DNA of 25,098 nt from a virus. Positions within the stretch are counted from its first letter, which is position 1. Every line of letters begins with the position of its first letter. Both the position numbers and the translations under genes were made by a program. Shown here piece by piece: positions 20,679-21,076 of this stretch. The stretch lies in UHGV virus genome UHGV-1632131; one strand, written 5' to 3'. Below the pieces are notes generated by a model. The model did not search any database. It had not been told where the DNA came from and saw nothing but the letters and a program-made list of their open reading frames with translations.

Positions 20679-20858
20679 GTGAATGCACAGGCTGATGTGC
20701 CGCAACTACAGTAGTGCGCGCTTTGCGGGGCTTGCTACAACCCTGTGTCGGAGTTCAGCACCGACCATCACAGTTTGATTCTCTGGCATGAGCATAACGC
20801 TGAAATAAGTCCAGTCTGGTGCGGCCCGATCACCCGCCGTTAGCTCCACGAAACGGAG

Positions 20859-20936
20859 CGCACAACAGGTAAGAGCATTGAGCCGATAATCGTGAAGAGT
20901 CGGCGAGCCTGGTTAGCCAATGCTCTTTCCGTTGTG
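20859..20936 (+). ncRNA. long-stem hairpin element E4
   Basis: CACAAC-[bulged A]-GGTAAGAGCATTG (20860-20879) pairs with CAATGCTCTTTCC-GTTGTG (20917-20935); followed by the small hairpin GCGCA-GACTGA-TGCGC (20942-20957), which covaries with the one after E3. Confidence 0.45.
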
Positions 20937-21076
20937 GTTGATGCGCAGACTGATGCGCGGAAAGAAATGCCCCAGCGACACACGAGGCGAGTTCACACAC
21001 TGCAATGCAGTCAGTAGCCGGGGTCGCTAAGCCGGAGATCAGTACCGGTAACCACAACAATTGGAGAGTAGGGAGC

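Follow-up and report, generated by a model that had tools for sequence, protein, structure and literature searches.

The small hairpins behind two long hairpins of a phage RNA array are a helix of a conserved, covarying RNA module that resembles a tRNA in layout

What are the two small hairpins that stand directly 3' of the long hairpins E3 and E4 in a 25,098-nucleotide stretch of viral DNA (UHGV virus genome UHGV-1632131; this whole stretch is called the window hereafter), and to which larger unit do they belong? Both lie in a nearly coding-free stretch of ~2.9 kb (roughly 18.95-21.9 kb). A sequence-only reading of the window had described them as covarying accessory hairpins in a fixed position and had proposed the long stem plus the small hairpin as the repeating unit, for example as a processing or protein-binding site. 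We find that each of the two hairpins forms helix P2 of a structured and conserved RNA module encoded on the + strand.

20685-20700, + strand: small hairpin after E3, helix P2 (GCACA, loop GGCTGA, TGTGC)
20943-20958, + strand: small hairpin after E4, helix P2 (GCGCA, loop GACTGA, TGCGC)

Both hairpins exist, one nucleotide to the right of the positions first given (20684-20699 and 20942-20957), and the observation is confirmed far beyond chance: the 18-mer ATGCRCAGRCTGATGYGC common to both has two copies in the window and none in 100 shuffles. The exchange of G-C for A-U in the third pair of the stem, read earlier as compensatory, is truly so, and homologous copies are Watson-Crick at this pair throughout. 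It is G-C or A-U in 128/128 of the matches listed from an IMG/VR scan in which both positions were left free, and among unique modules 81 carry G-C, 13 A-U and none a mismatch. The outermost pair is seen as G-C, A-U, U-A and occasionally G-U. A downstream-anchored scan, in which the hairpin itself was free, returned copies in which the fourth pair has gone from C-G to U-A or to A-U, as well as one complete swap of the P2 stem. Homologous loci, at which a lack of compensatory changes had been named as the outcome that would count against the claim, do show them: double changes occur at all five P2 pairs over 102 aligned homologues. The small hairpin is therefore a conserved, covarying RNA element of a repeating unit, in a fixed position after the long stems, and the upstream context T(G)AATGC/TGATGC is indeed retained; it comprises the 3' portion of helix P1 together with a 3-nt joiner.

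The extent of the repeating unit had to be revised. Rather than a long stem plus a small hairpin, it is a module of 100-125 nt whose closing helix joins GTTGTGG, with which the long stem ends, to a CCACCACAAC motif ~100 nt downstream. The canonical order is P1 5' strand, 3-nt joiner, P2, variable insert, P4 and P1 3' strand. Helix P1 (UGUGGUG/CACCACA, in general form (G)UUGUGGUG / CACCACAA(C)) has 7-9 bp and takes as its 5' strand the last nucleotides of the long hairpin before it. Of 139 copies, 118 have AAU as the joiner; P2 has 5 bp and a loop G(G/A)CUGA, and the variable insert measures 4 to ~290 nt and can contain a transfer RNA (tRNA); minimal members have inserts of 6-12 nt and no anticodon arm. 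P4 (GCCGG-AGAUCAGCA-CCGGC) abuts the P1 3' strand without a spacer in 102/102 aligned rows. Every 5'-anchored copy has this second hairpin (GCCGG-AGATCAGCA-CCGGC) 30-290 nt after P2, followed by CACCACA(AC). The window holds two such canonical copies, scored here with R1, a covariance model built from the alignment described below.

20675-20772, + strand: canonical type-1 module after E3 (R1 78.1 bits, E 4.5e-18)
20675-20681, + strand: its P1 5' strand, TGTGGTG, followed by joiner AAT and then P2 at 20685-20700
20701-20746, + strand: its variable insert
20747-20765, + strand: its P4, GTCGG-AGTTCAGCA-CCGAC
20766-20772, + strand: its P1 3' strand, CATCACA
20933-21056, + strand: canonical type-1 module after E4 (R1 81.6 bits, E 6e-19)
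20933-20939, + strand: its P1 5' strand, TGTGGTT, followed by joiner GAT and then P2 at 20943-20958
20959-21030, + strand: its variable insert
21031-21049, + strand: its P4, GCCGG-AGATCAGTA-CCGGT
21050-21056, + strand: its P1 3' strand, AACCACA

The alignment of 102 modules (A1), which underlies the pair counts and R1, has 98.6% of its cells paired and double changes at 11 of 22 pairs, among them 5/5 pairs of P2, 3/5 of P4 and 2/7 of P1. These pairing measures were reached by 0 of 500 shuffles, and slid controls pair at 20-56%. The minimum free energy fold of 20855-21066 forms P1, P2 and P4 together. The conserved P2 loop is complementary to and covaries with the loop of P4: five base pairs connect GCUGA of the P2 loop with UCAGC of the P4 loop (AGA-UCAGC-A). 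At the pair between the second P2-loop base and the P4-loop base after CAG, the combinations are G-C (70), G-U (8), A-U (5) and A.C (2). Within the D6 lineage this pair is G.U in phage D6 and A-U in its relatives, and the E4 loops of the window, ACUGA/UCAGU, are a compensatory pair. Of the proposed processing or protein-binding site, the link to processing is plausible; the loop, being paired with the P4 loop, is not free for a protein. These data also bear on the view that the small hairpin is free-standing, as a protein-binding or cleavage site on the long stem. Its fixed position, conserved loop and covarying stem would fit that view, but P1 and P4 accompany it downstream in 94/94 unique 5'-anchored copies, its loop covaries with that of P4, and it is also found without a long stem, which leaves this explanation hardly credible.

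Besides the two canonical copies, R1 identified three divergent ones in the window.

20440-20497, + strand: miniature divergent module after the 20361-20446 hairpin (R1 18.4 bits, E 0.003), with P1 GTTGTGA..AAG / CTTCACAAC
20470-20488, + strand: its P4, CCAGA-AGATAAGCA-TCTGG, with loop UAAG complementary to CUUA at 20459-20462
21680-21811, + strand: type-2 module after E5 (R1 17.9 bits), with P1 GTTGTGGT / GCCACAAC (the latter at 21804-21811)
21691-21704, + strand: its small hairpin, TGCG-GCTATG-CGCA
21789-21803, + strand: its P4, GGTGG-AGGCA-CCACC
19401-19500, + strand: type-2 module after E0 (R1 9.0 bits, E 0.6), with P1 GTTGCGG / CCGCAAC (3' strand at 19494-19500)
19412-19421, + strand: its weak small hairpin, GCA-CCTA-TGC
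19478-19492, + strand: its P4, GGGGG-AGGCA-CCCCC

The weaker versions that had been pointed out after E0 and E5 are thus real relatives and belong to a second subtype, type 2, of which at least 85 unique contexts were collected. Its architecture is that of type 1: counted on 88 units, P1 covaries between C-G and U-A, and a 5-bp covarying P4 with loop AGGCA abuts P1. The type-2 small hairpin (3-4 bp) is conserved, with no covariation seen in the 85 unique contexts, and a search for kissing loops in type-2 modules found no convincing complementarity.

Covariation of helix P1 is seen in the window's E4 module (GTGGTT/AACCAC), in lambda (UGUGCUG/CAGCACA) and in the C-G versus T-A exchange of type 2. 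Single changes in the P1 3' strand mostly keep G.U pairing, which argues for an RNA on the + strand rather than a DNA structure. The 5' strand has a second partner: GUUGUG can pair upstream, with the CACAAC in the foot of the cargo hairpin, or downstream, with CACCACAAC, and it covaries with both. Among the 88 type-2 units, the central C/U of GUUG(C/U)GG is C with G upstream and G downstream in 43, U with A and A in 37, and U with G upstream and A downstream in 6, so that two mutually exclusive helices are maintained. RNAfold folds the E4 unit into the module plus a shortened hairpin and the E3 unit into the full hairpin. A DNA-level element, whether a miniature inverted-repeat mobile element or a CACAAC-flanked recombination linker that shuffles RNA genes, could explain why the 97% identity between lambda and the window stops exactly at the hairpin borders, why apical parts have been swapped between phage P1 and the window on the same stem, and why the upstream and downstream CRCAAC copies vary together. 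It is nonetheless highly improbable, given that the compensatory and G.U-tolerant changes are strand-specific, that the orientation relative to tRNAs and transcription is constant, that conserved parts flanking hypervariable inserts argue for selection over recent spread, and that the hairpin is expressed as a small RNA (sRNA) in lambda. Recombination at the conserved stems may occur as a side effect.

The partner shared with the module is the foot of the long hairpins, six of which lie in the window with the conserved feet (A)CAAC...GTTG(T/C)GG.

19339-19407, + strand: long hairpin E0 (CAACATTAAGGAG...CTCCTTAATGTTG)
19927-20008, + strand: long hairpin E1, with no detectable module following
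20361-20446, + strand: long hairpin E2, with an apical D-arm-like hairpin and T-arm GGTTCGAATCC; it starts 4 nt past tRNA-Thr
20582-20681, + strand: long hairpin E3 (CACTACAACGTTGAGAACACTG...CAGTGTTCTCAACATTGTGGTG), with 22-nt arms that are 91% complementary and a fold z-score of -5.1
20861-20936, + strand: long hairpin E4 (CACAACAGGTAAGAGC...GCTCTTTCCGTTGTG), homologue of LPR2; its basal helix shares GTTGTG with module P1
21579-21686, + strand: long hairpin E5

The hairpin E4 connects the array to a known RNA. Window 20860-20936 and lambda 44786-44862, a segment that directly follows the 6S/tR' terminator, share 97.4% identity, and LPR2 is a lambda Hfq-bound sRNA of ~63 nt that is present in the lytic cycle and adjoins the 6S RNA (bioRxiv 10.1101/2024.10.31.621285). 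The northern probe for LPR2 (10.1101/2024.10.31.621285, supplement) maps to lambda 44816-44850, within the hairpin, and its target matches window 20890-20924 at 34 of 35 positions. An E4-type hairpin has 76 nt, or 64 nt without its basal CACAAC/GUUGUG helix, so that the size of LPR2 would fit cleavage at the hairpin foot, which is the 5' edge of P1. RNA ends had been expected at the small hairpin; the size of LPR2 and the position of its probe instead place them at the base of the long hairpin, where they would coincide with the 5' edge of the module. Only the long hairpin E4 belongs to the LPR2 family, and the small hairpin lies outside LPR2. The preprint on LPR2 (10.1101/2024.10.31.621285) describes neither a downstream structure nor a family.

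As identified by folding, a long hairpin abuts 97 of 114 modules (median span 81 nt), and its foot is predicted to pair with the start of P1 (GUUGUG) in 95 of these 97. The other 17 modules lack a long stem, and the module is also found with a real tRNA in place of the hairpin. In a Massilia prophage, a tRNA-Gly flanked by CACACA/UGUGUG takes the place of the hairpin and ends 1 nt before the module; at one other locus, a tRNA-like sequence without an ARAGORN call lies inside the variable insert. All 21 tRNAs within 1 kb of a module are on the same strand (21/21), and a same-strand intrinsic terminator follows within 200 nt downstream in 47 of 88 modules. The other long hairpins combine the conserved stem of E4 with different apical parts, several of which carry a true T-arm, and the stems have the look of a shared scaffold with interchangeable cargo. 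Another conserved hairpin of small size, GCTCC-ACGAAAC-GGAGC (window 20843-20859), stands 1-3 nt 5' of the long hairpin; elsewhere its stem varies (GCCAC/GTGGC, CCTC/GAGG) around a constant loop, and in other phages an alternative hairpin, CCTGG-GAAGAGA-CCAGG, occupies the same position.

In its layout, the module resembles a tRNA, or the tRNA-like domain of transfer-messenger RNA (tmRNA), minus the anticodon arm. As in both, no gap separates a closing stem of 7 bp from the 5-bp stem of a hairpin, corresponding to a 7-bp acceptor continuous with a 5-bp T stem, and a second hairpin, in the place of the D arm, lies 2-3 nt past the 5' strand and contacts the first loop to loop. As in tmRNA, the insert emerges at the position of the anticodon arm. 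Like tRNAs, the module stands amid same-strand tRNA genes and sometimes starts 1 nt past one. It differs from a tRNA in lacking an anticodon arm and in an elbow that would consist of five Watson-Crick pairs.

Modules are located in the untranslated RNA islands of phage genomes and typically lie directly 3' of a cargo, either a long hairpin of the LPR2 family or a tRNA. The most likely function that we infer is that of a tRNA-mimicking processing module which releases the neighboring sRNAs and tRNAs, a form of punctuation to which we give about an even chance. Once the P1 3' strand is transcribed, P1 would displace the foot of the upstream cargo hairpin, and the resulting tRNA-like fold would be recognized by the host tRNA-processing machinery. 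Based on the geometry and on the size of LPR2, RNase P is predicted to cut at the 5' edge of P1, and RNase E would cut the A/U-rich stretch 3' of P1 that usually follows CACCACAAC. A long untranslated transcript would in this way yield discrete stable RNAs, namely LPR2-type hairpins, tRNAs and terminator-ended sRNAs or tails, and the module may itself persist as a stable tRNA-mimic RNA. Such a module places the recently described lambda sRNA LPR2 in a structural setting and supplies a route for its biogenesis that can be tested, and it suggests how phages pack sRNAs and tRNAs into one transcript to be cut out by the host.

Several observations weigh against this interpretation. The module has no T-loop (UUCRANY), no D-loop GG consensus and no conserved 3' CCA; its loops are AGAUCAGCA and GGCUGA, and its 3' flank varies (ACAG, ACCC, ACCA, CATA, others). 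ARAGORN and the Rfam tRNA model (RF00005) call only the three true tRNAs of the window and no module. For about 80% of modules, no tRNA lies within 1 kb. The module of lambda itself is degenerate at 21.4 bits, having kept P1 with a compensatory G-C to C-G change and lost P2, and the ends of LPR2 are placed from its size alone. A1 was built from pattern-anchored scans and under-samples variation, and the loop-loop contact draws its support from few independent lineages, with A.C in 2-3 lineages. CRISPR interference across this region of phage P1 did not reduce plating (PMC10695390), so its role would be accessory under laboratory conditions. Finally, near-invariant helices and a 25-mer identical across bacterial classes exceed what an RNase P substrate needs, and this near-invariance suggests sequence-specific recognition by another conserved partner.

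This last point leads to the distribution of the family. Three viral pattern scans returned at least 120 loci each, and blastn with the E4 unit found 140 GenBank phage records, including lambda, HK620, P1, D6, T1-like phages and large Klebsiella phages. The exact 25-mer GTGGTGAATGCGCAGGCTGATGCGC is present in 50 species-representative genomes, among them Enterobacterales, Aeromonas, Marinobacterium, Moraxellaceae, Lysobacterales, Janthinobacterium, Massilia, Undibacterium, Xenophilus, Martelella and one Geobacteraceae metagenome-assembled genome. Overall, the family occurs in lambdoid, T1-like, P1, D6 and other phages and in prophages of Alpha-, Beta- and Gammaproteobacteria. Rfam 15 gave no match on the modules of the window or on one canonical Klebsiella phage copy, neither at the gathering threshold nor at E<=10, and only weak miRNA-like matches on the long hairpins. 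NCBI annotation has nothing under the module matches in E. coli genomes. The searchable literature, queried also with literal sequences, contained no description of the module, a negative that does not extend to the ~10,000 candidates of a viral-RNA catalogue (PMC10690425). The module is widespread and apparently undescribed, a tRNA-shaped element in hundreds of phages and prophages across Proteobacteria although phage P1 and lambda are among the best-studied genomes.

Such conservation raises the possibility that the module itself is the product, a stable trans-acting RNA for which processing is merely the release. It could be a mimic of the tRNA elbow and acceptor that binds or titrates a host factor or a tRNA-directed defense toxin, or its copies could associate with one another by loop contacts, in the manner of the ornate phage-associated RNAs ROOL and GOLLD. 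The identical 25-mer from Enterobacterales to Janthinobacterium, Massilia and Martelella, next to a freely varying insert, speaks for this, as do several copies per phage and a window neighborhood that contains the anti-defense genes DarA, DarB and a Tad2-like gene. On the Erwinia rhapontici chromosome (locus L304), a TATAAT lies 6 nt upstream of the first G of GUGGUG, and this module may be the 5' end of a primary transcript, not a processed piece. Clustering of open reading frames (ORFs) around 50 genome loci revealed no conserved partner protein gene; the ORFs are ordinary prophage genes (repressor, Cro-like, endolysin, spanin, RecT-like) at varying distances, and any partner would thus be a host factor. 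Pairing of the complementary loops could just as well be intermolecular. Conversely, the phage P1 region is non-essential in the laboratory, and the tight abutment together with the GUUGUG strand shared with the cargo strongly suggests a processing role in cis. We consider a trans-acting RNA rather unlikely, while the near-invariant helix sequences lead us to keep a sizeable probability for a tRNA mimic or self-associating RNA. If the module does bind a host factor rather than only directing cleavage, it would represent a new kind of tRNA mimicry.

A second RNA element of the window bears on such mimicry. At 19750-19925 lies a tmRNA-like tag unit, starting right after the terminator at 19719-19745, with a tag frame at 19805-19837 (GCA AAC GAT GAT CTG ATG ATG GTA GCG GCC TAA) that encodes ANDDLMMVAA; the E. 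coli SsrA tag is ANDENYALAA. Nine variants of the 10-amino-acid tag, including ANEEMYLAVA, ANDEQFLAVA and ANDDVVLMAA, occur in 58 unique copies among the loci collected, and this argues for conservation at the peptide level. The stop codon lies within a hairpin loop, as in tmRNA helix 5, and is followed by a pseudoknot whose second stem is 97.6% paired with double changes at 4/4 pairs. The Rfam model tmRNA_permuted scores only 24 bits on the unit. A complete tmRNA around it was considered and rejected, as ARAGORN reported none and no acceptor partner was found for the 5' UUUUCGU; the tag peptides had no printed match in the searchable literature. If functional, the tag units would be a second unexpected RNA system.

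Module and tag unit might together form a split phage trans-translation RNA in which the module is the tRNA-like acceptor partner. The SsrA-like tags with their stop codon in a hairpin loop before a covarying pseudoknot, the common order of hairpin, tag unit, hairpin and type-1 module, and a module topology like that of the tmRNA tRNA-like domain, with the variable insert in place of the anticodon arm, would agree with such a pairing. We find it very unlikely, though, for the module has neither G3:U70 (in all but 2 sequences the corresponding pair of P1 is G-C) nor a T-arm or T-loop consensus nor a conserved ACCA end. The tag is encoded 5' of the acceptor strand, in sequence that belongs to neither the domain nor the module; a tag unit is found within 700 nt upstream of only 13 of 102 modules, and ARAGORN makes no tmRNA call. 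Broader in scope, and unlikely as well, is a class of anticodon-less tRNA mimics that dock on a universal host machine and are for that reason kept near-invariant across proteobacterial classes, perhaps acting with tag units in a split, phage-encoded system of ribosome rescue or tagging, or as a decoy for defenses that target tRNAs. If this were true, phage P1 and relatives of lambda would carry an unrecognized RNA-based host-manipulation system.

Judged by its sequence, the window is a P1-like phage or plasmid prophage, with phages D6 and P1 as its nearest relatives, and it encodes DarA, DdrB, a 2280-amino-acid DarB-sized protein and the late-promoter activator Lpa. In phage P1, the counterpart of the coding-free stretch is the leader of the C1-controlled ban operon, with a 'dicF-like region' and three tRNA genes. 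In the window, the array includes the following tRNAs.

20205-20279, + strand: tRNA-Asn(GTT), within the array
20282-20357, + strand: tRNA-Thr(TGT), within the array (ARAGORN end 20357)
21319-21394, + strand: tRNA with CAT anticodon (tRNA-Ile2 in the annotation of phage P1)

Directly downstream of the RNA array, an ORF at 21924-22499 with a Thoeris anti-defense Tad2-like domain (E 7e-11) occupies the place of ban in phage P1 and adjoins the Lpa gene. An intrinsic terminator at 19719-19745 (GCCCATCTCCGGGTGGGC + T7) closes the counterpart of the 'dicF-like region' of phage P1, and just upstream of it (region 19620-19700) is a perfect 17-bp inverted repeat, 19621-19637 / 19683-19699. The 5' part of a tRNA-Ser(UGA) gene (GGAGAGTAGGGAGCATGGTGCTCAAGC) is present at 21063-21089, running into the ORF 21005-21208; this gene is intact in D6 (L002 2323-2409). 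In the window the fragment continues as the 3' portion of a tciB-like gene (DUF3927), and this fusion, located just behind the E4 module, has the appearance of a joint left by deletion or recombination. The annotation of phage P1 (NC_005856 69472-70041) places two genes, plp ('putative lipoprotein') and upl, on the other strand, opposite the array of hairpins and modules. Minus-strand protein genes were rejected for the window, where the ORFs 20460-20705, 20830-21117 and 21599-21808 have no Pfam match and an RNA-like substitution pattern. Because these window ORFs lack a Pfam match and the conservation follows RNA helices, plp, upl and the matching minus-strand ORFs are probably not genes. What is annotated in phage P1 as two hypothetical minus-strand ORFs is, according to these data, a dense plus-strand array of structured RNAs, of which the tRNA-shaped module is the best conserved.

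Transcription elements of the nut site or HK022 put type provide another comparison. The 3' strand CAGUGCUCUUUCC of the long hairpins (window 20918-20930 and equivalents) is conserved in sequence and resembles the boxA of rrn operons, whose consensus is UGCUCUUUAACAA; the P22 boxB consensus is GCGCUGACAAAGCGC, and the UGUGGUG after the boxA-like strand resembles boxC. Taking CAGUGCUCUUUCC as boxA and the small hairpin as boxB, the unit could render RNA polymerase resistant to Rho or intrinsic terminators, with fresh copies needed after each tRNA since excision cuts the RNA tether. Like nut and put sites, modules are situated in operon leaders (3' of tR' in lambdoid late operons, the Pban leader in phage P1, and between repressor and recombination genes in Janthinobacterium prophages) and have GCUCUUU ~14 nt upstream of a GC-rich 5-bp hairpin. 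They keep GCUCU in the hairpin 3' strand despite a U.U mismatch or G.U pair, and are commonly followed by terminators. As for HK022 put, they seem independent of a phage-specific partner. Unlike in these elements, however, the boxA-like sequence is locked in a stable stem and missing where a tRNA replaces the hairpin, the small hairpin has a 6-nt loop that pairs over a distance, with covariation, with the P4 loop, and five tandem copies interleaved with tRNAs would be unusual. When R1 was run with filters off against the complete HK022 genome, the top-scoring hit (12.5 bits, E 0.14) fell within a head gene, which eliminated the put family. A lambda-type nut site was rejected because the GCUCUUU is base-paired, the loop covaries with that of P4 and no common N-like neighbor was found. 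Overall, an antitermination role is quite unlikely, and we favor the processing reading.

Two other candidates were rejected. A Y RNA (YrlA, RF02553), to which the T-arm of a long hairpin had pointed, gave a sole match of 19.5 bits on tRNA T-arms against a gathering threshold of 69, and no TROVE-domain protein that would represent Ro (Rsr) was found among the window ORFs. A hammerhead or other known ribozyme, suggested by the loop CUGAUG, had no Rfam match, and the motif is part of a stem.

Among known RNAs, mascRNA-type tRNA-like processing elements stand alongside tRNA and tmRNA as the closest counterparts of the module. LPR2 is the homologue of the E4 hairpin and demonstrates that such hairpins accumulate as discrete Hfq-bound RNA; it corresponds to the cargo hairpin and not to the module or its small hairpin. 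In GOLLD and ROOL RNAs, tRNAs are sometimes nested in variable regions and loop-loop contacts are prominent, as in the module. These large RNAs, which Weinberg et al. reportedly described in 2009 and 2017, are structured, are encoded by phages or prophages beside tRNA genes and have no known function. They gave no sequence or model match to the module, which differs from them in its proteobacterial host range, its much smaller conserved unit and its tandem copies. Closest to the function proposed here are 3'ETS-leuZ-type sRNAs and the tRNA punctuation of mitochondria, in which tRNA-type processing likewise liberates neighboring RNAs from a polycistronic transcript, with the difference that the mark in these phages would be a dedicated, non-decoding tRNA mimic of highly conserved sequence.

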